DNA of 64,000 nucleotides, from IMG/VR virus record IMGVR_UViG_3300020220_003261. The stretch is one strand, 5' to 3'. The notes under the pieces are model-generated. The model saw only the letters and a program-made list of their open reading frames with translations. It did no database searches and had not been told where the DNA came from. Shown here one piece after another: positions 21,204 through 46,220 of this stretch. How positions within the stretch are numbered: position 1 is the stretch's first letter; every line of letters starts with the position of its first letter. The position numbers and the translations under genes were made by a program. Source of the stretch: a virus.

Positions 21204-21296
21204 ATATTAATTTATATATATCTGAAAAATAACATTTTTGAAAAGATTAGTAAACGAATTTAAAATTTATTTTTTTTGTTTTATATTTTGTTTTAC

Positions 21297-22586
21297 ATGG
21301 ATAAAATTATATGTAGTTTAGAAGATTGGGATTCTATTTTTGATTATTATAGACCAAACGGATCCTCAAAAACTTGGTACATAAAAGAACTAAAAATTTT
21401 GACATTACCTCTCATGTTGGCGGAATGGACCATTTTTACCGAACAGGGTGAAATGTTCGGAGAAGGACATTTGAGAAACACCATAACGCCAAACTATTCA
21501 AATTTAATACAATATACACCAAAAGAGAAAATTGGTCACTCTCCACACATTTATATTATTAATGTGTATGATAGTAATTTTTTTCACAACAATAGAAATT
21601 TAGGTTTTAGGTGCATTTCAAAAAATTACTTAAATGATATTAGAAATGGTAAATCTAAAATATTAATGTTTTTTTTATATGAAGGATATTCAGGAACAAA
21701 AAACAATGAAGACTTCGAATTGATTGAAAAGTGGAGAATAGATTCTGATTTACCCATCGATTCTATATATTATGTTTGTGGTAACTTATTATGTGAAGAA
21801 ATAGTTCGAGAAAAAGGTTATGGATATCAAGCGAGAGGTATTCATAATTTTGAACCGTGGAATAAATATGGTGGTAACTTATTGAATTTTAACCCTTTAT
21901 ATGATAAATTTTTGTTTCTGTCTTATAACAGACAATGCAGACACCATAGGATTAGATTTATAATTGATTTGTTAGATAAGAATTTAATTAACAAAGGATT
22001 AATAAGTTTAAATAAATTAAATAATATTCCATATGAAACAACGGATCAAAATAAAGATTTTTTAATTAACAAAACACCGTTGATTATTGATTCACTTCCT
22101 GATTTAACGAATAACTTGGCTGTAAACATAACCACTCAAGACTACGAAAGAACATTTATGTCTATTGTCACCGAAACTTTAGCAGATGATAATACTTTAT
22201 TTTTTTCTGAAAAAGTATGGAAACCTATTATGGTTGGTCATCCTTTCATGATTTATGGTAATCGTGGGTCATTAAAATATTTGAAAGATTTAGGATTTAA
22301 AACATATGATAAATGGTTTGATGAATCATATGATAACGAACTTGATAGGGACATTAGATCAAAAAAAATTGTAAATGAAATAGAAAGATTAAGTAAAAAA
22401 AGTTTAGAAGAATTGAAAATAATAAGAGAGGAAATGAAAGAAACTTGTCAATATAATTTTCATTTTTATAAAAAATATTATTCAGAAAAGTATGGTAATA
22501 ATGACCAATCTAAAGCAATAAGAGATATTTTATTAGAAATTTGGTCATCAATTTCTAATACAACGCCAAAACCAAATTTAATATGA
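21297..22586 (+). CDS. GT10-like paralogue family, copy 5
   Basis: FLSYNR..RHHR, MSIVTET..FSEKVWKP..HPFMIYG..GFKTYD..DESYD. ATG 21297 preferred. Confidence 0.5.
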   Translation: MDKIICSLEDWDSIFDYYRPNGSSKTWYIKELKILTLPLMLAEWTIFTEQGEMFGEGHLRNTITPNYSNLIQYTPKEKIGHSPHIYIINVYDSNFFHNNRNLGFRCISKNYLNDIRNGKSKILMFFLYEGYSGTKNNEDFELIEKWRIDSDLPIDSIYYVCGNLLCEEIVREKGYGYQARGIHNFEPWNKYGGNLLNFNPLYDKFLFLSYNRQCRHHRIRFIIDLLDKNLINKGLISLNKLNNIPYETTDQNKDFLINKTPLIIDSLPDLTNNLAVNITTQDYERTFMSIVTETLADDNTLFFSEKVWKPIMVGHPFMIYGNRGSLKYLKDLGFKTYDKWFDESYDNELDRDIRSKKIVNEIERLSKKSLEELKIIREEMKETCQYNFHFYKKYYSEKYGNNDQSKAIRDILLEIWSSISNTTPKPNLI

Positions 22587-25740: not shown

Positions 25741-26734
25741 AAAAGAATTTATAATATGTTTTTCAAGCCATTACGGTAAAAATGTTTTGAAACCGTTGAT
25801 GGAGGATATTAAAAAATATTCACCAAAAAAGGTTCTGTATTGGGCAGGTGATGAATGGGCATTACCTGGGGATATGATTATAGAAGATTTAGATAATCTA
25901 AAAGATTTGATCATAGACACAAATACACAATTATATGTTCTTTTTGGAAGTTGTGAAACTGAGAAAGGTCATTTCTACAAAAAAGTTTACCCACAAGAAA
26001 ACTTTAAAATTTTAAATTGGCCGACTTATTTCATACACAGGGTTAACTACGATACTAATAATTTTTTAAACGAATTTAACTATCTTTTTTCCAACTTAAA
26101 TTATATACCACATCATCACAGATGTGTTTTAATGGATGAGTTATATAATGTAAATTTATTTAATGTTGGAAAAATATCATGGAACTTAATTGATGAAAAT
26201 TATTCACAATATGATTTTAAGTATTGGAAACAAGAACTTATAGAAATAGACAACTTTATTAAAAACAAAAAAAATTTCACAAATACCTTTTATGAAACCG
26301 ATGACTCACTAATATCAATAGTAACAGAATCAACCACAAGAGATATGTTTTTTACTGAAAAAACATTTAAACCAATCATATCGGAAAGACCATTTATAGT
26401 TTTGGGGTATAAGGGTCAAAATTTAGAATTAAAAAAATATGGATTTGAATTATTCGATGAAATATTTAATTATGAGTTTGATTTATCTGATGATGTGGTT
26501 TATCGAGCAAAAGGTATTGTTCAAAACCTACAAAATTTAAAAAATGAAAACTATAACTTATTATATAATAAAGTATCAGAAAAGTTAAGACATAATAAAG
26601 AAGTCGCACTTAACATATTAGAAAATGACTTATTTATACCACAAGAAATATTGGAATTTAAAAACTTATATAAAGACGAATTCATCGAAGGTTTACACCA
26701 TAAAGTTCCTCAATTTTTCTCAAAGTATTTGTAA
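25727..26734 (+). CDS. GT10-like paralogue family, copy 6
   Basis: ISIVTES..FTEKTFKP..RPFIVLG..GFELFDEIFNYEFD. Confidence 0.5.
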   Translation: MEESKKEFIICFSSHYGKNVLKPLMEDIKKYSPKKVLYWAGDEWALPGDMIIEDLDNLKDLIIDTNTQLYVLFGSCETEKGHFYKKVYPQENFKILNWPTYFIHRVNYDTNNFLNEFNYLFSNLNYIPHHHRCVLMDELYNVNLFNVGKISWNLIDENYSQYDFKYWKQELIEIDNFIKNKKNFTNTFYETDDSLISIVTESTTRDMFFTEKTFKPIISERPFIVLGYKGQNLELKKYGFELFDEIFNYEFDLSDDVVYRAKGIVQNLQNLKNENYNLLYNKVSEKLRHNKEVALNILENDLFIPQEILEFKNLYKDEFIEGLHHKVPQFFSKYL

Positions 26735-28404
26735 TGTATATTATTGGAATATCGGCATTTTATCATGATTCATCGGTCTGTTTATTCAGAAACGACCAAC
26801 TTATATTTGCATGTGAAGAAGAAAAATTCACAGGTATAAAACACGATAGTTCCTTTCCCGAAAAAACATTGAATTATATTTTTAAAAAATATAAAATTCA
26901 AAAAAATGAAATTGAAAGTGTTTGTTATTATGAAAATCCACGTATAAAATTAAATAGAGTAATTAAAAACTTAAAGAAGAATATTTTCAATAGTCCATTA
27001 TATTGTATAAAATCATATTTGACAATTAAAAAAAACATTAAATATTTGGATAAAAGGTTAAATGAAATATGTCCAAATGTTTTTTATTCAACACATCATG
27101 AAGCTCATCAGTATTATTCATTTTACTCATCTCCATTTGATAAATCTGTCTGTCTGTCTGTAGACGGGGTAGGTGAAATTGACACATTGTCTATGGGTGA
27201 AACTAAATATAATGGAATATTATATACTCCTATTGCAGAATATCCTAATTCACTAGGTTTGTTTTATTCTGCCATGACATCATTTTTAGGTTTTAGACCA
27301 AATGAAGGTGAATATAAAGTCATGGGTCTCGCATCATATGGAAACCCTGTAGATCATATTGATAAAGTAAGAAAATTAATAAGATTCAAAAATGGTAGAC
27401 TCGAATGTAACATGGATGTTTTTTGTTGGGATCGATCAGATAGAATTATGTTTAATGAGAAATTACCCTCTTTATTGGAAATTGATCAGAGATTACCAAA
27501 CGAGAAGTTGGAAAAAATTCACGAAAATTTGGCAGCTTCGGTTCAAAAAGTATATGAAGAAATTCTGTTTAATATTTTAAAAATGGTTTCATTATGTTCT
27601 GAAAGTGGAAATTTATGTTTAAGTGGTGGTTGTGCATATAATGGAACCGCAAACGGAAAAATTACAAGTTTTACCAATTTCAAACATCTTTGGATACCAC
27701 CCGCCCCATCTGACGCTGGATCCACAATTGGTTCATGCGTACACTATATGGTTAAAATTAAAAAAAATGATAATAAAATAACAAGGAATCCTTTCTTGGG
27801 TCCTGAATATAATGTTGATGACTATACAAAATATATAAAATCATCTTCCAAGACTTATAAAATATTAAACGAATCTAAAATTAGATCTATTATCTCTAAA
27901 GAATTATTAGATGGAAAAGTGGTAGGTTGGTTTCAAGGTCATATTGAATTTGGTGCCAGAGCATTAGGAAACAGATCAATATTAGCAAACCCAACTGTTG
28001 ATGGAATGAAAGATAAAATAAATAGAGTTATTAAAAAAAGAGAGGGTTTTAGACCATTCGCACCTATGGTTGTCAAAGAAAAACAACATTTATATTTTGA
28101 TGTTACGGATGATGTTCCATACATGAATCAAGTGGTCAAAGTTAAACCTGAATATGTCGATAAATTAAAAGCTGTTACACATGTCGATGGTACCGCTAGA
28201 ATTCAGACGGTATATGAACACACCAGAATTCATGAATTATTAATAGACTTTGAAAAGTTAAGTGGATTTCCTATATTATTGAATACGTCGTTTAATGTAA
28301 AAGATAAAACGATGGTATTAACACCCAAAGATGCGATAGATACATTTTATGATACTGAAATGGATATATTAGTTATGGGTAATTATATTATATACAAATC
28401 TTAA
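26734..28404 (+). CDS. O-carbamoyltransferase (NodU/CmcH/TobZ family)
   Basis: GISAFYHDSS, HHEAH, DGVGE, SLGLFY, EGEYKVMGLASYG, LSGGCAYN, EFGARALGNRSIL, RPFAP, LNTSFN. Confidence 0.95.
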   Translation: MYIIGISAFYHDSSVCLFRNDQLIFACEEEKFTGIKHDSSFPEKTLNYIFKKYKIQKNEIESVCYYENPRIKLNRVIKNLKKNIFNSPLYCIKSYLTIKKNIKYLDKRLNEICPNVFYSTHHEAHQYYSFYSSPFDKSVCLSVDGVGEIDTLSMGETKYNGILYTPIAEYPNSLGLFYSAMTSFLGFRPNEGEYKVMGLASYGNPVDHIDKVRKLIRFKNGRLECNMDVFCWDRSDRIMFNEKLPSLLEIDQRLPNEKLEKIHENLAASVQKVYEEILFNILKMVSLCSESGNLCLSGGCAYNGTANGKITSFTNFKHLWIPPAPSDAGSTIGSCVHYMVKIKKNDNKITRNPFLGPEYNVDDYTKYIKSSSKTYKILNESKIRSIISKELLDGKVVGWFQGHIEFGARALGNRSILANPTVDGMKDKINRVIKKREGFRPFAPMVVKEKQHLYFDVTDDVPYMNQVVKVKPEYVDKLKAVTHVDGTARIQTVYEHTRIHELLIDFEKLSGFPILLNTSFNVKDKTMVLTPKDAIDTFYDTEMDILVMGNYIIYKS

Positions 28405-28407
28405 AGT

Positions 28408-28524
28408 ATGAAAAAATTGATAGAATGGTTAGTAAACAAGGTAAAAGATTACAAAAAAAAGAGAAAATTCAAAAAGAAATTAGAGGAATTGAAGAAAAGA
28501 GACCCATTTATTTATAAACATTAA
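28408..28524 (+). CDS. Small basic protein (38 aa, ends KKRDPFIYKH); not in ORF track
   Basis: ATG 3 nt after the carbamoyltransferase stop; open to TAA at 28524. Confidence 0.65.
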   Translation: MKKLIEWLVNKVKDYKKKRKFKKKLEELKKRDPFIYKH

Positions 28525-28561
28525 TTTTATTTTTTGAAAGGAAATCATTATATTATATATT

Positions 28562-28996
28562 ATGATATATTGGTTTACAGGACAGCCCGGATCGGGTAAA
28601 ACAACATTAGCTCTGGAATTAATGAAACATCTTCCGGCCGCAACCACTGTTCATATTGACGGTGATCACTTAAGGGATATTTTTAAAAATAAGGACTATT
28701 CTGAAGCAGGACGGAGAAAGAATATAGAAAGAGCGCAAGATATTGCTAAGTTCTTAAATACCAAAGGTTATTCGGTTATAGTGTCTTTAGTTTCCCCATA
28801 TAAGGACCAAAGAGATAAATTCAAATCAGAAAATTCTGTAGTAGAGATATATGTTCATACCAACGAAACAAGAGGTAGAGAACACTTTTCTGTAGATGAC
28901 TACAACCCACCAACTGAAAGATATCTTGATATGGATACAACAAATCAAACAATAGAAGAATCCACTAATAAATTACTTAATACTATATTTTTATGA
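28562..28996 (+). CDS. cysC: Adenylyl-sulfate (APS) kinase
   Basis: WFTGQPGSGKTT P-loop, IDGDHLR, VSLVSPY..R. Confidence 0.9.
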   Translation: MIYWFTGQPGSGKTTLALELMKHLPAATTVHIDGDHLRDIFKNKDYSEAGRRKNIERAQDIAKFLNTKGYSVIVSLVSPYKDQRDKFKSENSVVEIYVHTNETRGREHFSVDDYNPPTERYLDMDTTNQTIEESTNKLLNTIFL

Positions 28997-29367
28997 AAAG
29001 GTACGCAATGTACATTGGCAGGTGGCAAAATTGGCACGCCGGTCACGAATGGCTTATTCGCCAGCAATTAGATAAAGGTAAAAATGTATGGGTAGCTATC
29101 AGAGATGTACAAGTTGATGAAAATAATCCAAAATCAGCAAAAGAGGTATTTTGGTCATTAAAAAATGAACCATTTTTTGCTAATAATACGGACAAAATAA
29201 TGGTATCTGTCATTCCAGATATAGAATCCGTGAATTATGGTAGAGGTGTTGGATATGATGTTATTTATCATGAGCCGCCAAATGAAATCGCCGAAATAAG
29301 CGGAACTAAAATTAGAAAAGGAGAAATTGATGTCAATGGTAAAACGACACATAGCAAAGAGTATTAG
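28993..29367 (+). CDS. Small HIGH-superfamily nucleotidyltransferase
   Basis: IGRWQNWHAGH (HxGH) and ISGTKIR (KMSKS-like). Confidence 0.75.
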   Translation: MKRYAMYIGRWQNWHAGHEWLIRQQLDKGKNVWVAIRDVQVDENNPKSAKEVFWSLKNEPFFANNTDKIMVSVIPDIESVNYGRGVGYDVIYHEPPNEIAEISGTKIRKGEIDVNGKTTHSKEY

Positions 29368-29545
29368 CTATAGATTTGTAGGTACAATAACCACAATCAT
29401 ATTATCTGTATCTGCTGGCCTACCACTAAAGTGGGCGGGTATGGTTGGTTTGGGTGAGTTTATTTTGAAGCCTATCATATATTTTTTACATGAGAGAGTT
29501 TGGTACAAATGGATAAAATATGGGTTAAAAAATAAAACAATTTAG
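29330..29545 (+). CDS. DUF2061-like small membrane protein
   Basis: KSISYR..T, hydrophobic core, YFLHERVW. Confidence 0.8.
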   Translation: MSMVKRHIAKSISYRFVGTITTIILSVSAGLPLKWAGMVGLGEFILKPIIYFLHERVWYKWIKYGLKNKTI

Positions 29546-29609
29546 TATATTTATCTATAAAAGGAAAAATTTCTTTTTTAAAACGACTTCCCCCCTACCC
29601 CCAACCCCT

Positions 29610-29638
29610 TTGGTAAATTAAAATATTTTTCGTATAAT
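29610..29638 (+). promoter_or_regulatory. sigma70-like promoter TTGGTA-17-TATAAT, 6 nt before ATG 29645
   Basis: Read directly from the sequence; canonical 17-nt spacing. Confidence 0.6.
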
Positions 29639-29644
29639 TACAAT

Positions 29645-30151
29645 ATGATAAAAGTAATTGATAATATTTTAACTAAATCTGAGTTTTCTTTTCTAAAAAA
29701 AATTATTAACAACCCCAATTTCTATGCGGACAATAAACCACATACTAAGGTTGATTCAAAAAATTATTACAATCGTAAATTCATAACACCTACGGATAAT
29801 ATAGAAAAAAGGATATATGAGTGTTTAAAATTAGAATATGACTCGCTTAAATTCAAAATTTCTAATTGTTGGATAAACCATATATATGTGGATACAAACA
29901 AAAATGATAATTTTCATAAAGACAGTTCAGATGTTTCTACGGTACTTTTTTTAAATGAGGGATTTATTGGTGGTAATTTTGAATATAAAGATTTTAATGG
30001 TGATATTAATATTATAACACCGAAAGAAAATCGTTTAATCGTAATCGATAAAGAATGTTTACATAGAGTTAGCAACGTAATTGAAGGTAATAGATACACT
30101 TTTGTAGCGTTTTTACATTTTCAAGAAAAAACAAGTAAAACAATAATATGA
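29645..30151 (+). CDS. 2OG-Fe(II) oxygenase
   Basis: FHKD, VLFLNE.F.GG.F, HRVSNVIEGNRY; ends SKTII. Confidence 0.85.
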   Translation: MIKVIDNILTKSEFSFLKKIINNPNFYADNKPHTKVDSKNYYNRKFITPTDNIEKRIYECLKLEYDSLKFKISNCWINHIYVDTNKNDNFHKDSSDVSTVLFLNEGFIGGNFEYKDFNGDINIITPKENRLIVIDKECLHRVSNVIEGNRYTFVAFLHFQEKTSKTII

Positions 30152-30159
30152 AATTGATA

Positions 30160-30167
30160 TATTTATA
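30160..30167 (+). promoter_or_regulatory. TAYTTATA motif (putative late promoter) before ATP-grasp/Hint gene
   Basis: TATTTATA 17 nt before ATG; the same motif precedes five other genes. Confidence 0.4.
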
Positions 30168-30184
30168 AAAAAAGGAAAAAATCT

Positions 30185-31633
30185 ATGAAATCAGTATTAA
30201 TAGCAACAGATTTAATAAAAACAACTTCAGGAGAAATTAAGGTACTCGAAACCAATACTAATGTAAAAATAGGTCAACCTTTTGGTACTAACACACATTA
30301 CATGGATGGTATCATACCATTTATACAGAATGGTGGTTTTCAAACAGTTCATTGTATTTTGCCAAGAAGTTCACATTATTTTAGTGATGAATTAAATAGG
30401 GTTTGTAATTCTTTAAACATACCACTAACCATACACTTTACTACACCTGACGCCATTACAGTTCCTTTTATTGAGGATTCAGATGATGTGTTAATCATAA
30501 GATTAACATACGATACAACAGCAATAATCGATGATGATTATTGTAGAGATAAATTCGCATTACAGAAAATAATTAATACTAAATCTTATGGTTCAAAAAC
30601 ATATATACCAAATGTTTTAGATGATTTTGATGGTATTGAAGATTTTATATTCAATGAGAACGCTCCAAATTTTATAATTAAAAAACGTTTTCCAAACTAC
30701 AATAAAGAAGTGTGGCCAAAATTGTATAAAATTGAAAATTTAAACCAATTAAACACATTAAAATCAGAAATCGAATCTGATTGTTATTTACAGGAATTCC
30801 ATAATTCCGAATTGATTGATGGAAAAAGATGTATTATCAGAACTCTCGATTTATTATATGGTTCAAATTTAGATGTTTTGAATATTTGTAGTTTTTATAG
30901 AACATCAGAATTGGCCGAGGGCTATTGGCCGAATACGTTTGATGAAAATGGATTACTAGCCTTTAAAGACAGATTTAAATATTTATCTCACGCCTCACAT
31001 GAGGATTCATATATATCAGAATATGTTTACGATGTTGACCAAGAAGTTGTAATGGGTGATGGTAGTAAAAAAATGTTCGCACTTTTAGAAGTTGGAGACC
31101 AAGTAAAAGGAATTCACATTGAGGGATTGGATTTAGATGAATCATCATACGATTTAAAAACTTGGACTGGTAATTATTCTGATTTTATTCAAAATTACAA
31201 TTTAGTAACAACCGAAGTAAAATATACACACACTTCACCCCCAACAAACAAATTATTTTTAAGAGTTACTCTTAACGATGGTAATACACAATGGGATGAT
31301 TTGGGTATTTCTCGAATATTAATAAAGGATAACGATTTGATTAGATTTACATTATTTGAAAATTTAGAAGTGGGTGATGAAATTGTCACATATAATTTTG
31401 AAACTAATTCTGTAGAAATCAAATCAATTCAAACAATAGAAGTTGTTTATAAAGAAAATCAAATTTTAGGCGTTCTTGATGCAGAACCAACTGATTTATA
31501 TCTACCATTAGTTTCTGATAAAATAACAATTATACAACATAACCTGTGTAAAGCTCTATGTAGAAGTACTCAATGTGCTAATGCGACACAATGCGGTGAC
31601 TGCACTACATTTCAATGTTTAAACCAAAAATAA
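30185..31633 (+). CDS. Circularly permuted ATP-grasp + Hint domain + C-terminal six-Cys peptide
   Basis: N-terminal D-x11-ETN metal motif, IIKKRFP, YLQEF; Hint V.MGDGSKK..LEVGD.V ... LEVGDEI ... IIQHN; tail LCKALCRSTQCANATQCGDCTTFQCLNQK. Confidence 0.7.
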   Translation: MKSVLIATDLIKTTSGEIKVLETNTNVKIGQPFGTNTHYMDGIIPFIQNGGFQTVHCILPRSSHYFSDELNRVCNSLNIPLTIHFTTPDAITVPFIEDSDDVLIIRLTYDTTAIIDDDYCRDKFALQKIINTKSYGSKTYIPNVLDDFDGIEDFIFNENAPNFIIKKRFPNYNKEVWPKLYKIENLNQLNTLKSEIESDCYLQEFHNSELIDGKRCIIRTLDLLYGSNLDVLNICSFYRTSELAEGYWPNTFDENGLLAFKDRFKYLSHASHEDSYISEYVYDVDQEVVMGDGSKKMFALLEVGDQVKGIHIEGLDLDESSYDLKTWTGNYSDFIQNYNLVTTEVKYTHTSPPTNKLFLRVTLNDGNTQWDDLGISRILIKDNDLIRFTLFENLEVGDEIVTYNFETNSVEIKSIQTIEVVYKENQILGVLDAEPTDLYLPLVSDKITIIQHNLCKALCRSTQCANATQCGDCTTFQCLNQK

Positions 31634-31656
31634 ATTACTTATAAAATAATTAGAAT

Positions 31657-31767
31657 ATGTTAATAAAAATTATATTTCAGCCAACAGAAGAGTCTACGAA
31701 ACTAAATTTGGATACCGTGATAAAGGATGTTGCCTCCACTATTAAGACAGACATTCAAAACGGTTAA
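31657..31767 (+). CDS. Small 36-aa protein (MLIKIIFQPTEESTKLNLDTVIKDVASTIKTDIQNG); not in ORF track
   Basis: Open frame fills the gap between two genes; TACTTATA motif at 31636..31643 upstream. Confidence 0.55.
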   Translation: MLIKIIFQPTEESTKLNLDTVIKDVASTIKTDIQNG

Positions 31768-31773
31768 AATACT

Positions 31774-32067
31774 ATGGGATTAGATATTAAAGAAATAACT
31801 AAAGCTTGGTTTGATTCTTATTTTGCAAAAGAAGAACAAAAAGCTTTAGCAAAAAAAAGATTTGAAATATGTAAAAATTGTCCATCTTTAAAGAATAAGT
31901 TTCAAATACTTTGGCCAAAAATGGAAATAACAGTTTGTGGTGAATGTGGATGTCCAATAAAAAAAAAGATTTTTTCATCTAACTTTAATGCGTGTCCATT
32001 AAAAAAATGGAAGGAGGTGGATATGGAAAATATGAAACTATTTGAAAAAAATAAAACTTTAATATAA
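31774..32067 (+). CDS. DUF6171-like Cys-rich (metal-binding) protein
   Basis: R..ICKNCP..CGECGCP..CPLKKW; ends NKTLI. Confidence 0.6.
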   Translation: MGLDIKEITKAWFDSYFAKEEQKALAKKRFEICKNCPSLKNKFQILWPKMEITVCGECGCPIKKKIFSSNFNACPLKKWKEVDMENMKLFEKNKTLI

Positions 32068-32124
32068 ATTACTTAAAAGTGTGATTTACTAAAAAATTTA
32101 TAGTAAAGGAATAAATTAATTAAT

Positions 32125-32724
32125 GTGAATTATCCTTTTTATCAAGAAGTTATTTTTACGGGAGAAGAATGTAAAAAAATAATAGAATATTCTAAAAAAT
32201 ATCCGGCACTCGCTGAAAAGAGAAAATTAGAACCAAAAATAGATTTGACCACAGGTAGAGTAGAACAATTGTTCCAATCTAACGATGGTGATAAGAAAGG
32301 AAAGGCTTTCTTCGTTTATGATATTGTTAGAGATGAGACTACTGAATGGGTTTTTAAAAAACTATTAAATTGGTTTCAAATGGTTTCGGATATTAAATTA
32401 AAAGAAACGCCCGTAGTAAATGGTATGACTCTACTTAATTATAGAGTTGGTGATTTTTTTATGAAACATACGGATATATATGAAAATTTTGAGTGGAGAA
32501 GATGGACATTAAACATTCAATTAGGTAATCAATATAAAGGGGGTGATTATGTTTTGTATTTAGATGACAAAGAAGTTATCTTAAATAAAGATACGGGAAA
32601 CGCAATTGCATATTGGGCCGGTACTGAACACGAAATAAAAGAAATAGAAGAAGGAGAAAGGTGGTCTATTGTTTGTACTATTACTAAGTATATGATTGTT
32701 GAAAAAGAAAAGAAGTTATTTTAA
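32125..32724 (+). CDS. 2OG-Fe(II) oxygenase
   Basis: KHTD, YKGGDY, HEIKEIEEGERWS; GTG start; ends EKKLF. Confidence 0.85.
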   Translation: MNYPFYQEVIFTGEECKKIIEYSKKYPALAEKRKLEPKIDLTTGRVEQLFQSNDGDKKGKAFFVYDIVRDETTEWVFKKLLNWFQMVSDIKLKETPVVNGMTLLNYRVGDFFMKHTDIYENFEWRRWTLNIQLGNQYKGGDYVLYLDDKEVILNKDTGNAIAYWAGTEHEIKEIEEGERWSIVCTITKYMIVEKEKKLF

Positions 32725-32725
32725 A

Positions 32726-33418
32726 ATGTCCCTATTAATAAATGATGAGTTAATATGGGTATCAATACCGAAAAATGCGAGTCATTCGATTGAAAATTCA
32801 CTTTATTTATCTAATCTTAAAATTGAAAACTTTGATTCCAAACTTAATAATTTAAATCCATCTAATCCAAAATTTTTGCATAAACACCATAAGTTAGATG
32901 ATATGTGTAAATATTGGAAAAACAAAAAATCAATTTGTGTAAAAAGAGACTTTGTGGATAGATGGATTTCCGCATTATCGTACACTTGGGACCAATTTAA
33001 AAAAAAAGAATTATCTCCGATTATTGAGTATGAGGATATAGACAATAATTTTATTTATAAAACCTTTGATAAAAAATTTTCAGATATTTTATATGGTCAT
33101 GATGGTAGAGTTGAAATTATAAAATATCTAATTAAAGATAAATTAAACGAAGATAGTTTATTTGAAAATAGAATAAGCGTATTTTTTTCACAAAATTATT
33201 GGCTTGGATTAAGTAAAAATTGTGATTATGAATTCAATATAAATGAGTTAGATAAGTTGGTTGATTTTATTGAAAACAAATATGGGGAAAAATTATTGTT
33301 AAATAAATTTAACGTATCAAAAAAACAAAGGAATAAAATAATAATAAATAACGAGTTTAAAAACCACATATGGGAGATTTTTGAAAAACCATTTGTAAAA
33401 ACGAAAAAAATTTTGTAA
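32726..33418 (+). CDS. Sulfotransferase family 2-like protein
   Basis: WVSIPKNASHS (5'-PSB-like) and KRDFVDRWISA (3'-PB-like). ATG 32726 preferred; ends TKKIL. Confidence 0.6.
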   Translation: MSLLINDELIWVSIPKNASHSIENSLYLSNLKIENFDSKLNNLNPSNPKFLHKHHKLDDMCKYWKNKKSICVKRDFVDRWISALSYTWDQFKKKELSPIIEYEDIDNNFIYKTFDKKFSDILYGHDGRVEIIKYLIKDKLNEDSLFENRISVFFSQNYWLGLSKNCDYEFNINELDKLVDFIENKYGEKLLLNKFNVSKKQRNKIIINNEFKNHIWEIFEKPFVKTKKIL

Positions 33419-33423
33419 ATAAG

Positions 33424-34041
33424 ATGCACGGTAAAGAAAAAATAAAGATTTCTAAAGATGAGATAAAAATTATTAATAGTAATTTGCCAACAAATACTAT
33501 AATGCATTCGGGTGAAAAACATTTAATGGCTAGACTTGCGGACATTGCAACAAAAAATGGCGGTGATATTTTAGAAATTGGTTTTGGTTTACACCTATCC
33601 GCCGATGCTGTTCAGAGTAATCCAAATGTAAAATCACATACTATCATTGAAATACATCCTGAAATATATAAATCGGCATTAACTTGGGCAAAAGATAAAC
33701 CAAATGTTAATATTATTTTAGGTGATTGGATTAAAATTTTACCAATATTAGGGGGAAAATTTGATGGTATAATTCACGATACTCATATAGATAGAAACAT
33801 TCCATTTTTTTTGGATTATGTTAAAAATAATTGTAAAAAGGGTGCCATTGTCGCTTTTTTTGAGTATATGTTATTTGATACAAGATTTAATGGAGTTAGA
33901 TATAAATTGAACAAAGAAGACTACGATTCTTTACCTTACAGAAATAATCAATGTTTTTTTAATTACGAATACGAATTAAAATATACAACATTTAATGGTA
34001 TTGATTTTTATTCAGATAGAAAAGTTGACAAATTAATTTAA
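33424..34041 (+). CDS. GAMT/RMT2-like class I methyltransferase
   Basis: GGDILEIGFG..SADAVQ, HTIIEIHP, GDW, FDGIIHDT; ends DKLI. Confidence 0.75.
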   Translation: MHGKEKIKISKDEIKIINSNLPTNTIMHSGEKHLMARLADIATKNGGDILEIGFGLHLSADAVQSNPNVKSHTIIEIHPEIYKSALTWAKDKPNVNIILGDWIKILPILGGKFDGIIHDTHIDRNIPFFLDYVKNNCKKGAIVAFFEYMLFDTRFNGVRYKLNKEDYDSLPYRNNQCFFNYEYELKYTTFNGIDFYSDRKVDKLI

Positions 34042-34043
34042 AA

Positions 34044-35090
34044 ATGATTGATTTAAAGAATTATATATGTAGAGTACCTTTTGATTCATTAGAAATACAT
34101 AATAATGTTTGTTTTGTCTGCTGTCCTTCTTGGTTACCAAATAGAGTAGAACTAAATAAAATTCCATTAAGAGATGTTTATAATAGTAAACCAATAATTG
34201 ATATTCGAAAATCAATTTTGGATGGTACATTTAAATACTGTGATAAAGAAATGTGTCCTCATTTGAGTAAAGTAATAAAATATGATATTCCTGCAGGCCC
34301 GATTATTAAAAAAAATAGTGTAGAAAAATTTGATTTAATAATAAAAAATAATACACCAGATAATGTGGTAATGAACTTTGATAGAACATGTAATTATAAA
34401 TGCCCTTCGTGTAGAATAAATTTAATTGTTGAGGATAGTAATGGAATTAAAAGAATTGAAAAAACAATAGAAGAAATTGATACTTACTATTCTGCAAATG
34501 TAAAAACATTGTATATTACAGGTACAGGCGACCCATTTGTATCAGTAGGGTTTAGAAATTATTTAAGAAATTTTAACACTAAAAAATATCCAAAATTACA
34601 ATCAATACATTTACATACAAACGCATCAATGTGGAATCAAGAAATGTGGGAATCAATGCCAAACGTACACAAATATGTAAAAACGTGTGAAATTAGTATT
34701 GATGCCGGAACAAAGGATACTTATGAAAATAAAACTAGATTGGGTGGTAATTGGGAAAATTTACTAAATAACTTAAAGTTTATATCTACGATACCAACAT
34801 TGTATAGAGTTAAAACATCATTTGTGGTACAAGATTCCAATTATATGGAAATGGAAACATTTTATAATTTAATGTATTCTATATTTGGTGAAAAAGTAAA
34901 TGTATTTTTTGGTAAAATAACAAATTGGGGAACATATTCTGAAGGTGAGTTTAAATTAAAGCAAGTTTGGAATTTTGAACATCCGGAACATATGTTATTT
35001 AAAAAAGAATTTAATAAGATATGGAGGAACCAACGACTTTTTCATAATTTATATGAGTTCATTGATAATACAAATAAAACGTTAATATAA
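34044..35090 (+). CDS. Radical SAM enzyme with N-terminal Cys cluster
   Basis: YIC..PF..CCPSWL..C..CP, RTCNYKCPSC, ITGTGDPF; ends NKTLI. Confidence 0.85.
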   Translation: MIDLKNYICRVPFDSLEIHNNVCFVCCPSWLPNRVELNKIPLRDVYNSKPIIDIRKSILDGTFKYCDKEMCPHLSKVIKYDIPAGPIIKKNSVEKFDLIIKNNTPDNVVMNFDRTCNYKCPSCRINLIVEDSNGIKRIEKTIEEIDTYYSANVKTLYITGTGDPFVSVGFRNYLRNFNTKKYPKLQSIHLHTNASMWNQEMWESMPNVHKYVKTCEISIDAGTKDTYENKTRLGGNWENLLNNLKFISTIPTLYRVKTSFVVQDSNYMEMETFYNLMYSIFGEKVNVFFGKITNWGTYSEGEFKLKQVWNFEHPEHMLFKKEFNKIWRNQRLFHNLYEFIDNTNKTLI

Positions 35091-35587
35091 TGAAGATTTT
35101 ATTAATAACCCTACCCAGAACAGGATCCACTTCATTATTAAAAAATTTATCAGAACAATATAATTTAAATGCAATAAGTGAACCATTCAACCCATCTACT
35201 AAAAATTTAGAACAATATAAAAATTTTGATTGGAATACTACAAATGAAATATGTGTTAAAACCCATATAAATCACAAAGACATATCATTCTATACAGATT
35301 TTGTAAAACTATTTGATAAAGTAATTTTAGTATCTAGAAAGGATTTAAAGTTGTGTGCTGAGAGTTTGGCATATGCAAATCATTTTGGAAATTTTAGTGA
35401 AAAATACAAATGGATTAATACACCTAATTTAACACATAATGTAAAATTAGTAAAAAAATTTGACGCAGATTTAAAAAAATTATCAGAACTAATTAATATT
35501 GATATATTATACTATGAAGATTTGTTTGATATAAATTCTGAAAATAAATTAAGAAAAAATGTTGTTAAAAGAAAAAATCTTATTTAG
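35090..35587 (+). CDS. Sulfotransferase-like P-loop protein
   Basis: LPRTGSTSL, EPFN, R.DL...AES, YYEDLF; ends KNLI. Confidence 0.65.
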   Translation: MKILLITLPRTGSTSLLKNLSEQYNLNAISEPFNPSTKNLEQYKNFDWNTTNEICVKTHINHKDISFYTDFVKLFDKVILVSRKDLKLCAESLAYANHFGNFSEKYKWINTPNLTHNVKLVKKFDADLKKLSELINIDILYYEDLFDINSENKLRKNVVKRKNLI

Positions 35588-36077
35588 TAAAAAAGAGTGT
35601 GAATATATTATTGAGTTATCTAAAAATTTACCAAATACTAAACCATACACTAGTAAAAGTGACCAATTTAAAGTTTCTTATGATGCTTGGAAATTAATTT
35701 TAGATAATAATTCTCAATGGATTTTTGATAAAATCACTCAATACTTTACATATGCAACTAATCTAAAAATAAAAAAAGAATTAAGTACGTTATATATCCA
35801 CAAATATAATGTAGGTCAACAATTTGAAAAGCATAACGATACGCAATATAAAACTCAAATACACAATGTAGGTGTATGTTTAAATGATGATTATGTAGGT
35901 GGTGATTTTATCTTATATAATCCAAAGGAAATACTACCGAAAAGACAAGGTGAAATATACACATTTCCTAGTAGTAGATTTCATGAGGTTGAACAAATAG
36001 TAAAGGGTGAACGATGGAGTATAATTGGATTTATACATATAGAAAATATTTATTTATCTAATAAAACTTTAATATGA
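35559..36077 (+). CDS. 2OG-Fe(II) oxygenase
   Basis: KHND, LNDDYVGGDF, HEVEQIVKGERWS; ends NKTLI. Confidence 0.85.
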   Translation: MLLKEKILFSKKECEYIIELSKNLPNTKPYTSKSDQFKVSYDAWKLILDNNSQWIFDKITQYFTYATNLKIKKELSTLYIHKYNVGQQFEKHNDTQYKTQIHNVGVCLNDDYVGGDFILYNPKEILPKRQGEIYTFPSSRFHEVEQIVKGERWSIIGFIHIENIYLSNKTLI

Positions 36078-36631
36078 AAATCGCAATAACCGGTCACAGC
36101 GATGGCGTTGGTAAAAGTATTTATGAAAAACTTTTGAAAGAGTTTAGTGTAATTGGACTAAGTAGGACTAATGGATATGATATTAAAAACGTTGACGAAA
36201 TATTGAAACAAGTAGAAGAGTGTGATGTTTTTATTAATAACGCTTTCCAACAAAACTACCAAACGTTATTATTTGAAAAACTTTTTTACAGATGGAAATA
36301 TACCACAAAGTTAATTATTAATATGAACAGTAGTTGTGTATACGAGTCGTCAGACTGGAATCCGACATATGCGAATATTAAAAAGGATTTTAAAGAAGTT
36401 TCTATGAATATCATAAGAAGCAATATTGATAAGAAAGTTAGGATAACTAATTTGTATCCATCAACACTATCTTCTCACACAAGATTTGAAAAATTAAATA
36501 AAATTGATATTAACTATATTTCAGACGTTATTCTTTGGTTAGTGTCTCAACCTAAAGAGGTCGAAATAAGAGAAATGAGTATTTATAGTACAACTTTGGA
36601 GAAAGAATTTAAAATAGATAAGTTAATGTGA
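36074..36631 (+). CDS. Short-chain dehydrogenase/reductase
   Basis: IAITGHSDGVG, FINNA, YANIK; ends DKLM. Confidence 0.8.
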   Translation: MKIAITGHSDGVGKSIYEKLLKEFSVIGLSRTNGYDIKNVDEILKQVEECDVFINNAFQQNYQTLLFEKLFYRWKYTTKLIINMNSSCVYESSDWNPTYANIKKDFKEVSMNIIRSNIDKKVRITNLYPSTLSSHTRFEKLNKIDINYISDVILWLVSQPKEVEIREMSIYSTTLEKEFKIDKLM

Positions 36632-37167
36632 ATGTTTGTATAGTTTGTTATAGTAGAGTCGGTGGTACATCTTTTGGAAAATGGTTAAGTTTAGAATTAA
36701 ACTACACTTATATACAGGAACCATTTAATCAAAATCATAACGAATTATATAAAAACACAGATTATTCCGAAAATAAATTTGTTATAAAATTAGAACCTGA
36801 ACAAGTTGAATTAATTAAAACAGATAAAAAAACGATTGGATTAATAAGAGAAAACACAATGGATTGTGCAATAAGTTTACTACATTGTTTAGAAAGTGGT
36901 AAATGGCACAGAGAATATAGTGTAAATCAAAATTAGATTGATTACAACAAAAAAAGGTTAGAAGAAATAGAACTACAAATAAAAAATCAGAACACTAATA
37001 TTAAAAAAATGAATACGGATATTTTAGTAACATATGAAGGTATATATAATACACGTTCAGATATACTAAAACTAAAAGAATTTTTTAATATTAAAAATTT
37101 TTCATATATTTCTACATATTTAAACCCAAAAATACGTTATAGAAATGGTAATAAAATAATAATATAA
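36628..37167 (+). pseudogene. Sulfotransferase-like gene interrupted by an in-frame TAG at 36934..36936
   Basis: YSRVGGTSF, EPFN; the frame stays open for 76 more codons (DILVTYEGIY...NKIII) to TAA 37167. Confidence 0.7.
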
Positions 37168-37189
37168 ATTTGGAGCGATTCTCATTACT

Positions 37190-37218
37190 TTGGTTCTTGC
37201 AAAAAGAAAATATAAAAT
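37190..37218 (+). promoter_or_regulatory. sigma70-like promoter TTGGTT-17-TAAAAT
   Basis: Intergenic; 19 nt before ATG 37238. Confidence 0.35.
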
Positions 37219-37237
37219 TTAAAACAAATAAACTATT

Positions 37238-38035
37238 ATGAATCCTTTACAATATTGGAAACCAGAAGGATTCGAAATTTCATCTTACAAATATTCATTA
37301 AGAGAAAGAGTAAATCAAACATATACAACTTCGGGTGGAGATAATACAAATTTATGTACTTACACATATAATGAATTGGGATTTAGAGGTGATAGTATAA
37401 AAAAAGAAGGTTTCAAAGTAATGTCATTAGGATGTTCAATCACAGAAGGGGTTGGGGTAAATGATGACGAGACCTGGCCCGCGCAATTTTGTAACCATAT
37501 TGAAAACGGGGTAAATTTAAATTTTGGAACCGGAGGAAGAAGTAACGATTTTATTTGCAGATGTTTAATAAGTTATTATGATTTAATACAACCTGATTTA
37601 GTTTTAATTATGTATACATTTCCGCATAGAAGAGAAGTTTATACAGAAGATAACGGAATAGAACCATATGTACCAACAAAAGTTTGGGGAAAATTATTAG
37701 AAACTAAAGAGGGACAAATTATACAAAATAGTATGGATGTTTTACAAAACGATAACTCTGATTTTATAAACTGGTATAAAAATCATATTCTAATTAAGTA
37801 CTTTTTAGAAAGTAAAAAATGTAATTGGTTGTGGAATGGGAAAAACTTAAATATCAATTACAATGAATTCAATAGATTTGATGGGGAAAAATCATTTTTA
37901 GATAAGGGAAGTGACGATAAGCACCCTGGTCCAAAAACACATAATAGAGATGCAAATTTATTATACGATTATATTAGAATGAAATTTCCAAACTATATTC
38001 CAAAAAACGAACATGCCTTTCTTAAAATAATTTAG
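37238..38035 (+). CDS. SGNH-family protein (GCS variant)
   Basis: YTYNELGFRG, SLGCSITEGVG, NFGTGGRSND, DKHPG; ends LKII. Confidence 0.7.
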   Translation: MNPLQYWKPEGFEISSYKYSLRERVNQTYTTSGGDNTNLCTYTYNELGFRGDSIKKEGFKVMSLGCSITEGVGVNDDETWPAQFCNHIENGVNLNFGTGGRSNDFICRCLISYYDLIQPDLVLIMYTFPHRREVYTEDNGIEPYVPTKVWGKLLETKEGQIIQNSMDVLQNDNSDFINWYKNHILIKYFLESKKCNWLWNGKNLNINYNEFNRFDGEKSFLDKGSDDKHPGPKTHNRDANLLYDYIRMKFPNYIPKNEHAFLKII

Positions 38036-43595: not shown

Positions 43596-43627
43596 ATATT
43601 TATATGAGTATAATACCATATAAATAT
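43596..43627 (+). promoter_or_regulatory. 11-bp perfect inverted repeat covering the tail-fibre start codon; 5' arm contains the TATTTATA motif
   Basis: ATATTTATATG (43596..43606) / CATATAAATAT (43617..43627); ATG at 43626. Confidence 0.55.
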
Positions 43628-46220
43628 GAAAATATTTCAGCCTTTAATAACTGGTTCGTTAAGTGTATCAGGCTCAACGACGATTAGTCAAGATTTAACA
43701 GTCCTTGGAACCATCAATGCGACGATTAGTGGTACCACAACAAACGCAATTACCGCTTCATATGCTTTAAATGCAGATACTATTGATAATATTGATTCAT
43801 TAAGATTAGCAACAACTGGAAGTAACACATTTAATGCAGATCAAACAGTAACTGGATCAATAAAGATTCAAGGAGATTTATACATTAACGGGACTCAGTA
43901 TACGGCTGCAACATCAGGAACCTCAGGAACAAGCGGTTCTTCTGGTTCATCAGGAACTTCAGGATCATCTGGTAGCTCTGGTTCGTCTGGTTCTTCTGGT
44001 AGCTCAGGTTCTTCGGGAACAAGCGGTTCTTCTGGTTCATCAGGAACAAGTGGTAGCTCAGGTACATCAGGAACCTCTGGTACAAGTGGAACATCAGGAA
44101 CTTCAGGATCATCTGGTAGCTCTGGTTCGTCTGGTTCTTCTGGTAGCTCAGGTTCTTCGGGAACTAGTGGAACATCTGGTTCATCAGGAACAAGTGGTAG
44201 CTCAGGTACATCAGGAACCTCTGGTACAAGTGGAACATCAGGATCATCAGGATCATCTGGATCGAGTGGTACTGTAACAATGACAGGAGCTCAAGATAAT
44301 GGTGTATTAACATTAAACGGTTCCTCTCCAAATGTGACCGCCGAAACTAATTTAACATTTGATGGCACAACATTAACTGTTACTGGTGACGTATTAATAA
44401 CAAATAATTTATTAGTACAAGGAACAAATACAAATTTACAAGTTACTCAATTGTTTATTGAGGACAAGACAATAACATTAGCTAGTGGTTCTTTAACAGC
44501 AGCAGCTGCCAATGGTGCAGGTATTGAGGTAGTTGGCCCAACAACAGCGGCAACAATCACATATACAAGTGCGAACGATAGTTGGAATACTAATAAAATA
44601 TTAAGAGTTCCTGAGTTATTCATAAATGGAACACAATATACTGCGGCAACCTCAGGTACAAGTGGTTCATCTGGTTCTTCGGGAACAAGTGGAACATCGG
44701 GATCAAGTGGTTCGTCTGGATCTTCTGGTAGCTCAGGTTCTTCGGGAACAAGTGGAACATCGGGATCAAGTGGTTCGTCTGGATCTTCTGGTTCATCAGG
44801 AACCTCTGGTACAAGTGGAACATCGGGATCAAGTGGTTCGTCTGGATCCTCTGGTAGCTCAGGTTCTTCGGGAACTTCAGGAAGTTCAGGTTCATCAGGA
44901 ACCTCAGGTAGTAGTGGTAGCTCAGGTTCATCTGGAACATCAGGTTCTTCTGGATCATCAGGAACCTCAGGTAGTAGTGGTAGCTCAGGTTCATCAGGAA
45001 CCTCAGGTAGTAGTGGTAGCTCAGGTTCATCTGGAACATCAGGTTCTTCTGGTTCATCAGGTTCATCAGGAACCTCAGGTAGTAGTGGTAGCTCAGGTTC
45101 ATCTGGAACATCAGGTTCTTCTGGTTCTTCTGGATCATCAGGAACCTCAGGTAGTAGTGGTAGCTCAGGTTCATCAGGTTCATCAGGAAGTTCTGGGTCA
45201 AGCGGATCAAGTGGATCAAGTGGATCAAGTGGATCATCAGGTACTTCAGTTTCAGTATCAGGAACTAACAATACATTAGTTAAATTCACATCAGCATCAA
45301 CAGTGGGTAATTCATCCATTACAGATGATGGTACAACAGTAACAATTGGTGGTAACTTAGTTATTTCAGGTACACAAACAACAGTTAACTCAACAACCGT
45401 TAATATTGCTGATAATATTATTCAATTAAATGGTACTGGAGCAACAAACGCAGGTTTAGTTGTAAGAGACGCTACCGCATCTACGTTGGTATCAGGTTCA
45501 TTTTTGTGGGATACAACAAATGATAAATGGATTGCGGGTCCGTTAGGATCTGAAGATGATGTTGTATTAAAAACAGCATCGCAAACTTTAACGAATAAAA
45601 CAATTAACGCTTCCCAATTAGTTGATGCATCTGTAACAAATGCTAAATTAACTAACTCATCTTTAACAGTTACGGCTGGTACAGGTATGAGTGGTGGAGG
45701 ATCAGTTGCATTAGGGTCATCGGTAACATTAACAAATGCCGGTGTGACATCGGCGGTTGCAGGAACGGGTGTTAGTGTAAGTGCCGGAACAGGAGCGGTA
45801 ACAATTTCAATTGGTCAAGCCGTAGCGACCAACTCGAATGTTCAATTTAACGCTTTAGGTGTTGGAACCGCTGCACCAAACACGGCAGGTTTGATTAGAG
45901 CAACAAATGACGTAATTGCTTTCTATGGCTCAGATATAAGATTAAAAGAAAATATAACACCTATATCTAATCCAATCGAAAAGTTAAAACAAATAAATGG
46001 TTACGAATTTGATTGGATTCCTTTAGAGGGTATTCACGAAAATGAAGGTCATGATATTGGAGTGGTTGCTCAAGAGATTGAAGAAGTCTTACCTGAAATT
46101 GTAACAACAAGAGATAATGGTTATAAGGCTGTTAAGTATGAAAAACTTGTGGCGTTATTAATCGAATCTAATAAAGAATTACTTAGGAAAATTGAAATAC
46201 TTGAGAATAAACTTAGGTAA
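43626..46220 (+). CDS. Phage tail fibre with two Ser/Thr-Gly triplet tracts and C-terminal peptidase S74 intramolecular chaperone
   Basis: SDIRLKENI..GYEFDW..DIGVVAQE.E.VLPE..YKAVKYEKLVALLIE; (S/T)SG repeats. Confidence 0.9.
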   Translation: MKIFQPLITGSLSVSGSTTISQDLTVLGTINATISGTTTNAITASYALNADTIDNIDSLRLATTGSNTFNADQTVTGSIKIQGDLYINGTQYTAATSGTSGTSGSSGSSGTSGSSGSSGSSGSSGSSGSSGTSGSSGSSGTSGSSGTSGTSGTSGTSGTSGSSGSSGSSGSSGSSGSSGTSGTSGSSGTSGSSGTSGTSGTSGTSGSSGSSGSSGTVTMTGAQDNGVLTLNGSSPNVTAETNLTFDGTTLTVTGDVLITNNLLVQGTNTNLQVTQLFIEDKTITLASGSLTAAAANGAGIEVVGPTTAATITYTSANDSWNTNKILRVPELFINGTQYTAATSGTSGSSGSSGTSGTSGSSGSSGSSGSSGSSGTSGTSGSSGSSGSSGSSGTSGTSGTSGSSGSSGSSGSSGSSGTSGSSGSSGTSGSSGSSGSSGTSGSSGSSGTSGSSGSSGSSGTSGSSGSSGSSGTSGSSGSSGSSGTSGSSGSSGSSGTSGSSGSSGSSGTSGSSGSSGSSGSSGSSGSSGSSGSSGSSGSSGTSVSVSGTNNTLVKFTSASTVGNSSITDDGTTVTIGGNLVISGTQTTVNSTTVNIADNIIQLNGTGATNAGLVVRDATASTLVSGSFLWDTTNDKWIAGPLGSEDDVVLKTASQTLTNKTINASQLVDASVTNAKLTNSSLTVTAGTGMSGGGSVALGSSVTLTNAGVTSAVAGTGVSVSAGTGAVTISIGQAVATNSNVQFNALGVGTAAPNTAGLIRATNDVIAFYGSDIRLKENITPISNPIEKLKQINGYEFDWIPLEGIHENEGHDIGVVAQEIEEVLPEIVTTRDNGYKAVKYEKLVALLIESNKELLRKIEILENKLR
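43911..44273 (+). repeat. (S/T)-S-G tripeptide tract 1 (about 120 aa) with 144-bp DNA periodicity
   Basis: caggaacttcaggatcatctggtagctctgg... at both 43951 and 44095. Confidence 0.9.
44649..45245 (+). repeat. (S/T)-S-G tripeptide tract 2 (about 200 aa) with multiple DNA-level repeat units
   Basis: ggaacctcaggtagtagtggtagctcaggttcatc recurs several times between about 44900 and 45180. Confidence 0.9.

Follow-up and report, generated by a model that had tools for sequence, protein, structure and literature searches.

A short C-terminal motif shared by unrelated tailoring enzymes of an uncultured jumbo-phage lineage, and its possible role as a docking tag

We analysed a stretch of 64,000 nucleotides of viral DNA (IMG/VR virus record IMGVR_UViG_3300020220_003261; this whole stretch is referred to as the window), in which a block of genes at positions 29,645 to 38,035 encodes tailoring enzymes that share a short C-terminal tail. 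The window has a GC content of 27%, no tRNA gene or Rfam family was found in it, and it forms a dense island of glycosyltransferases, radical S-adenosylmethionine (SAM) enzymes and a collagen-like fibre that ends in Peptidase_S74 and matches phage tail-fibre PHROGs. A sequence-only reading had listed eleven C-termini in the block, namely SKTII, NKTLI, EKKLF, TKKIL, VDKLI, NKTLI, RKNLI, NKTLI, IDKLM, NKIII and FLKII, and all eleven are encoded as listed. It had also reported, correctly, that the tail is absent from a 36-aa open reading frame (ORF) in the block and from the ATP-grasp/Hint protein, which ends in CLNQK and is called the hub below.

All genes of the block lie on the plus strand. 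The first one (29645-30151, SKTII) encodes a 2-oxoglutarate (2OG)-Fe(II) oxygenase (Pfam PF13640, E 3e-6), and the tail is present in 92% of 48 members of its family. It is followed by the hub gene (30185-31633), which was assigned from an AlphaFold2 (AF2) model and Foldseek, and by a gene for a 97-aa Cys-rich protein (31774-32067, NKTLI) with orthologues ending in KTII, KTLM, KTFL or KTLI. A second 2OG-Fe(II) oxygenase (32125-32724, EKKLF; PF13640, E 3e-8) has orthologues that mostly end in KKTLL or KKTLI. Next come a sulfotransferase-like protein of about 231 aa (32696-33418, start possibly at 32726; TKKIL), with the tail in 98% of 66 family members (e.g. KRNQLI, NKTLI), and a methyltransferase-like protein (33424-34041, VDKLI), whose six orthologues end in NKLL, KSLL or KSLI. 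The radical SAM enzyme (34044-35090, NKTLI; PF04055) carries the tail in 95% of 83 orthologues, and the small P-loop sulfotransferase-like protein after it (35090-35587, RKNLI) in 96% of 67 family members. The third 2OG-Fe(II) oxygenase (35559-36077, NKTLI; PF13640, E 1e-9) has an HxD..H..R motif that is invariant in the alignment. It precedes a short-chain dehydrogenase/reductase (SDR)-like protein (36074-36631, IDKLM), for which nine of ten family members end in NKLI or DKLI. A small sulfotransferase-like gene (36628-37167) is interrupted by one in-frame TAG at 36934-36936; its 3' piece ends in NKIII, and intact orthologues end in KRKNII. TAG also terminates the block genes that end at 35587 and 38035, so that recoding is a less likely explanation of the internal TAG than a nonsense mutation or a sequencing error. 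The last gene (37238-38035, FLKII) is SGNH/GDSL-like, with the tail in 61-71% of 77 family members.

The folds named by the sequence-only reading fared unequally. Pfam confirmed the three 2OG enzymes and the radical SAM enzyme, while the SDR assignment is based on a weak adh_short match, those of the methyltransferase (weak Methyltransf_25 match), the GDSL/SGNH protein and the DUF6171-like protein (the 97-aa Cys-rich protein) on matches below threshold, and that of the sulfotransferases on a lead from the Atlas, in which the neighbours of the small P-loop protein are viral Sulfotransfer_3 clusters. BLAST clustering did confirm that the tailed families are unrelated to each other.

The window belongs to a lineage of uncultured jumbo phages. 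The relatives found are contigs from IMG/VR with lengths of up to 335 kb. In cultured phages, the block had no DNA match, neither the hub nor the radical SAM enzyme was matched by tblastn, and only two distant 2OG matches were found, one of them in Synechococcus phage S-RS29, where the gene has an unrelated context and no tail. Cellular genomes yielded no close relative of this radical SAM enzyme. A search with Capsid_NCLDV gave no match, but it carries no information, as its controls did not match either.

The motif first proposed for the tail, K-x-[LI]-[ILFM], fitted 7 of the 11 C-termini, the other four having K at position -3. The forms with K at -3 are DKLI, DKLM and LKII, and KKLF and KKIL can be read in both registers. 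We used a combined motif, in which a protein ends in K-x-[LI]-[ILFM] or in K-[LI]-[ILFM]. Among 76 greedily chosen non-overlapping ORFs of the window, this motif terminated 11 of the 12 block proteins of at least 50 aa, the hub being the only one without it, and 1 of 63 proteins elsewhere (binomial p 1.3e-22, the null being the rate of 0.0082 at which the motif occurs at internal positions of the window proteome). The strict form K[ST][LI][IL], with an internal rate of 0.0002, was found at the end of 4 of the 12 block proteins and of none of the 63 others. Three weak matches had been noticed outside the block. Two of them turned out to be real bearers: a 434-aa protein (6561-7865, plus strand, PTNII) from a family (C13) with the tail in 92% of 25 members (KTLI, SSLI, NSLI), and its 436-aa paralogue of the same family (21276-22586, plus strand, KPNLI). 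The third, NKTI at the end of a DUF2061 protein (29327-29545), is due to chance, the tail being found in none of 31 orthologues. The idea that the tail is confined to the block was thus slightly too narrow, since two more bearers lie 8 and 23 kb upstream.

To determine conservation, we used the radical SAM gene to collect 80 IMG/VR contigs (64-85% identity), on which orthologues of every tagged gene were found to retain the tail. The radical SAM orthologues ended in TNKTLI in 42 of 83 cases and otherwise in KTLI, TSLI or KTLM. Sulfotransferase-like proteins ended in KRNQLI or KRKNII, and 2OG enzymes in ETNKLI, KKSLI or TKTII, the latter keeping the tail even though their bodies are just 35-40% identical. 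Among representatives of radical SAM clusters at 50% identity, the tail persisted down to about 40% identity and was absent from remote GC-rich homologues; the gene context of distant homologues with the tail could not be read, their contigs measuring 1.7 and 3.8 kb. When all proteins were grouped by BLAST clustering, the tail was present in at least 80% of the members of 15 families, in at most 10% for 30 families, and in between for 10. The families never tailed included the hub (0/56), a cytidylyltransferase (0/33), the DUF2061 protein, the kinase for adenosine 5'-phosphosulfate (APS; 0/24) and a 908-aa glycosyltransferase (0/17).

A logo built from 404 distinct tail sequences showed K (.55) or N (.17) at position -4, T (.40), S (.17), K (.17) or N (.11) at -3, L (.74) or I (.17) at -2 and I (.72) or L (.17) at -1, with enrichment of K, N and R from -7 to -4. 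The consensus is thus K(-4) S/T(-3) L(-2) I(-1), or, in a wider form, [K/N]-K-[S/T]-L-I-COOH. In ten families, entropy dropped at -2 and -1 relative to a variable linker rich in K, N and T and containing indels. The genome-wide test was run on a complete relative (G001; 335,630 bp, 100% complete by CheckV), in which [LI][IL] terminates 34 of 414 ORFs. A position-specific scoring matrix trained on other genomes was positive in 7 of 9 cassette genes of this phage, compared with 17 of 405 other genes (p 3e-8). The positives outside the cassette, some of which lie far from it, clustered in the same glycan island and towards the two ends of the record, and included GDSL-like and sulfotransferase-like proteins.

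We also considered that the tail might simply reflect AT-rich composition, or a nucleic-acid signal (for ribosome loading or translational coupling, or a promoter or terminator) located where genes adjoin. K, N, I, L and T do have A/T-rich codons, many junctions are tight or overlapping (ATGA, TAATG), and ATA and AAT are slightly overrepresented among the last codons. The codons of the tails vary synonymously, as had been stated from the sequence, and when 273 distinct tails were compared with gene bodies, the usage for Leu(-2) was TTA.69, TTG.13 and CTA.10, against.69,.13 and.08 in the bodies; usage for Thr(-3) and Lys(-4) was likewise that of gene bodies. All three stop codons are used by tailed genes, and the spacing between a stop and the start that follows it varies from less than -20 to more than +60 nt, while the order of the residues is fixed beyond what an A/T-rich composition imposes. 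Neither extra nucleotide conservation nor a fixed spacing, as expected of a Shine-Dalgarno or coupling signal, was seen. Furthermore, operons elsewhere in the window have equally compact junctions without the tail, and in G001 the tail also precedes neighbours on the opposite strand. As tail codon usage equals that of gene bodies, all stops are used, the gap to the next start varies and the residue order is fixed, selection acts on the peptide, and an origin in DNA signals or composition is close to refuted. Together with the conservation in orthologues and the bimodal distribution among families, this indicated that the tail is a selected feature of the proteins, as the sequence-only reading had proposed, and a real motif that is present lineage-wide.

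In the AF2 model of the 2OG enzyme encoded at 35559-36077 (pLDDT, the predicted local distance difference test, 88), a confident double-stranded beta-helix carries the invariant HxD..H..R residues, while residues 169-172, which form the tail, lie on a C-terminal extension with a pLDDT below 50 and no secondary structure. Such predicted disorder is what an exposed short linear motif is expected to look like. In the cyanophage homologue, the chain stops with the last strand of the fold and there is no extension. Hydrophobic residues tend in general to be avoided at bacterial C-termini (PMC10862746), so a conserved Leu-Ile end needs a positive reason.

The hub was not recognized by a Pfam search (0 families), and a PDB profile search gave nothing significant (best E-value 0.14). 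Its AF2 model (pLDDT 82.5) revealed both folds by Foldseek: the N-terminal domain resembled ATP-grasp enzymes such as glutathione synthetase, glutathionylspermidine synthetase (GspS) and YgiC, and the C-terminal part was a Hint domain of the hedgehog/intein/BIL type (TMt about 0.8). The acidic, Asn, Arg and Lys residues of the ATP-grasp domain are invariant in the alignment. The Hint domain ends in an invariant His-Asn, after which comes a six-Cys peptide of about 29 aa that is hypervariable between orthologues, and this combination makes the hub a candidate self-releasing peptide system. Conjugation to the lysine of the tail by the Hint domain, as in BUBL-like systems, was rejected, Val or Met being present where the N-terminal Cys or Ser nucleophile should be. 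Hub clades of 627-649 aa and of 912 aa have no Cys peptide. The 912-aa variant (L069:3218-6112 and six similar loci) ends just past the His-Asn of the Hint domain (VHNK), and a conserved separate ORF of 50 aa comes next, replacing the fused Cys peptide.

The tail is linked to the hub. An independent scan anchored on the hub gave 271 stretches, of which 80 loci, with 27-59% identity to the hub of the window, were kept. The fraction of tagged genes was.72-.86 at one to three genes on either side of the hub (.61 at -3), about.4 at six genes and.05-.18 at ten to twelve genes (.28 at -11). Strings of gene order from the first 80 loci showed runs of tagged genes around the hub and radical SAM genes; tagged genes numbered 483 of 726 at a distance of up to five genes from the radical SAM gene and 185 of 694 farther out. 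The K-S/T-L-I consensus was identical across hub clades that are less than 50% identical to each other, including those devoid of the Cys peptide. Tagged genes thus cluster at the hub with a constant consensus, which supports the view that the tail marks one functional, hub-organized gene set, and implies that whatever reads it must be conserved.

Other features of these loci were observed. The order carbamoyltransferase, APS kinase, cytidylyltransferase, DUF2061 membrane protein and ATP-grasp/Hint protein (26734-31633 in the window) recurs in many relatives, and the four genes upstream of the hub all lack the tail. The radical SAM gene frequently adjoins the hub gene directly. A 2OG subfamily that ends in FWFH (23 loci, e.g. 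L071:4764-5234) and a 274-aa family that ends in K[IL]PI (11 loci, e.g. L070:6905-7729) are found directly upstream of the radical SAM gene and are never tailed. At 43626-46220, downstream of a GT9-like protein of 739 aa, the window encodes the fibre, an 864-aa protein with collagen triple-helix repeats and, at its C-terminus, a Peptidase_S74 chaperone domain, which is a possible substrate for the island enzymes.

The reading that we favour, with a probability of roughly 0.45, is that the tail is a C-terminal docking tag by which interchangeable tailoring enzymes are plugged into one partner, probably the ATP-grasp/Hint hub. The tail would be a short linear motif at a free C-terminus, borne on a flexible extension past the catalytic fold in at least 15 unrelated families, and would be recognized by a single partner through one conserved peptide-binding site. 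An enzyme that gains the tail would be recruited to the same place or substrate, and the enzyme set of the cassette would thereby become freely exchangeable. The partner would most likely be the tail-less hub that sits in the centre of every cassette and may carry the substrate, which could be its self-released Cys-rich peptide; alternatively, the partner could be another conserved protein of the glycan island. We favour docking because the tag accompanies the hub, is retained despite rapid gene turnover and is found on decorating enzymes, but not on the enzymes of precursor supply or on most glycosyltransferases. Somewhat unlikely, in our estimate, is an arrangement in which the hub would be both the scaffold and the carrier of the hypervariable Cys-rich peptide and would bind K-S/T-L-I-COOH, so that the enzymes would bear the tag and the precursor the receptor. 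If this arrangement were true, the phage could swap cassette enzymes to diversify one product. A predicted complex of the hub, ATP and the 2OG enzyme had a score of 0.09 (mark 0.32); controls being absent, it speaks neither for nor against binding.

Several observations weigh against docking. The FWFH subfamily of 2OG enzymes and the 274-aa and 376-aa families are cassette enzymes without the tail, and conversely there are bearers far from the hub, at 8-23 kb in the window and, in the complete relative, close to either end of the record. Reader domains were not found in G001 among PDZ_6, PDZ_2, TPR_16, S41 and encapsulin: there was no PDZ_6 (PF17820) or PDZ_2 (PF13180), the controls of this search having matched and PF00595 and the host not having been searched, no Peptidase_S41, no TPR_16, and no encapsulin (Linocin_M18, PF04454), the bacterial microcompartment (BMC) shell families not having been searched. 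Finally, both the binding of a partner and the identity of that partner are inferred, and linkage to the hub would be equally expected if the hub were a mere common substrate and the tail were read by a host factor.

Such a host factor could be ClpXP, which, like a phage-encoded ClpP with a ClpC-like ATPase, might read the tail as a shared degron or unfoldase tag limiting the lifetime or amount of the enzymes. Basic residues followed by two aliphatic ones at a free end resemble the C-motif-2 ClpX degron of MuA, RRKKAI (PMC12723719), and hydrophobic C-termini generally raise susceptibility to proteolysis, although short tags unlike ssrA are weak degrons in E. coli (PMC10862746). The complete relative does encode a bona fide ClpP (194 bits; 212668-213195; L098:1363-2040:+) and a 670-aa double-AAA+ ClpC/ClpA-like ATPase with a UVR motif and no N-domain (L099:1201-3213:-), but in this relative the two genes are separated from the cassette by more than 60 kb. 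Furthermore, a degron does not explain why only enzymes neighbouring the hub should be unstable and the glycosyltransferases and precursor enzymes of the island should not. We consider a degron unlikely. Still more doubtful is a role of the tail as a recognition element for the ATP-grasp domain, which would ligate an amine (amino acid, polyamine or peptide) to the C-terminal carboxylate in the manner of RimK, LysX, GshB or GspS. The structural neighbours of the N-terminal domain of the hub all ligate at C-terminal carboxylates, its acidic, Asn, Arg and Lys residues are conserved throughout, and the hub is always found among tail-bearing genes; this reading nevertheless leaves the Hint domain and the Cys peptide without a role, and the known protein ligases of the ATP-grasp family act on acidic termini, not on Leu-Ile. 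Other roles share the odds that remain. As to the host, the closest relatives of the ClpP (70-77% identity; L103, L104) are on contigs of about 250 kb binned in metagenome-assembled genomes (MAGs) of Flavobacteriaceae/Bacteroidetes, in which the radical SAM gene was not found, while cellular ClpP of Flavobacteriaceae is just about 48-50% identical. These matches point weakly to a host among the Bacteroidota, or to phage contigs placed in the wrong bins.

If the tail does dock enzymes to one hub, it would provide a simple, evolvable rule for interchangeable enzyme sets and explain the high gene turnover of the cassettes. It would also be a handle of four to six residues with which the partner and substrate could be pulled down, and which could be reused for engineered co-localization of enzymes. 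The tag is also a marker, readable from sequence alone, for pathway members among the many orphan genes encoded by the uncultured jumbo phages that abound in freshwater and in the sea. In the published literature, we found no description of such a tag, nor of one for a biosynthetic enzyme set of a phage; a survey of jumbo phages (PMC7824862) mentions ClpP and a cyanophage cluster of carbamoyltransferase and 2OG genes, and no tag.

C-terminal address tags on unrelated enzymes are well known from eukaryotes, with peroxisomal targeting signal 1 (PTS1), KDEL and the tripeptide of the cytosolic iron-sulfur assembly (CIA) pathway, and also from encapsulins. PTS1 is -SKL-COOH, or more generally [SAC]-[KRH]-[LM], and is read by the TPR domain of Pex5. 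Like the phage tail, it is carried by many unrelated enzymes and has a basic residue before an aliphatic end. Unlike PTS1, however, the phage tails typically end in [ST/K/N]-L-I with K at -4 or -3, no TPR_16 gene was found in G001, and we know of no compartment in a phage-infected bacterium to which a PTS1-type tag could direct proteins. The class I PDZ-binding motif is X-[S/T]-X-hydrophobic-COOH, and bacterial PDZ proteins are mostly periplasmic. The tails follow this pattern in part, with S or T at P-2 in 57% and I or L at P0 in 89% of them, K or N occupying P-2 in about 28%; PDZ_6 and PDZ_2, as mentioned above, were not among the domains of G001. Compared with degrons, no tail ends in the Ala-Ala of ssrA-like C-motif-1. 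The similarity with C-motif-2 of MuA, a basic run before a free C-terminus made up of an aliphatic residue and Ile, is a resemblance only, the penultimate residue being Ala and not Leu in MuA, for which no S/T position is described.

The cargo peptides of encapsulins and microcompartments are also short shared terminal peptides on functionally linked, unrelated enzymes encoded beside a hub gene. They are, however, about 10-18 aa long with another consensus, and the hub looks like an enzyme, not like a shell protein; as to shell genes, PF04454 was absent from G001 in a search that did not cover the BMC shell families. The leaders of RiPPs (peptides made by ribosomes and modified after translation), with the RiPP recognition element (RRE), likewise guide tailoring enzymes to one peptide precursor through one short element, and the phage cassette has a radical SAM enzyme beside a Cys-rich peptide. 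In this cassette the topology would be reversed, the enzymes bearing the tag and the precursor the receptor, and no RRE was detected. The CIA targeting complex recognizes a tripeptide, [LIM]-[DES]-[WF]-COO-, on eukaryotic cytosolic Fe-S proteins (Marquez et al., PMC10245660). Here too, unrelated clients share a very short motif at the free C-terminus, which in the case of CIA is read by one machine and is transferable. The CIA motif differs in its sequence, is eukaryotic and serves cofactor delivery, whereas most of the phage bearers (sulfotransferase-, methyltransferase-, SDR- and GDSL-like) need no Fe-S cluster; a CIA-like delivery of cofactors was ruled out, as most bearers need no metal cluster. 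The phage tail does not have the full defining features of CIA motifs, PTS1, encapsulin peptides or class I PDZ ligands. By analogy, its working principle would be closest to that of the C-terminal client tags read by a single receptor (CIA, PTS1 and encapsulin peptides), while its pattern alone would be that of a class I PDZ ligand.

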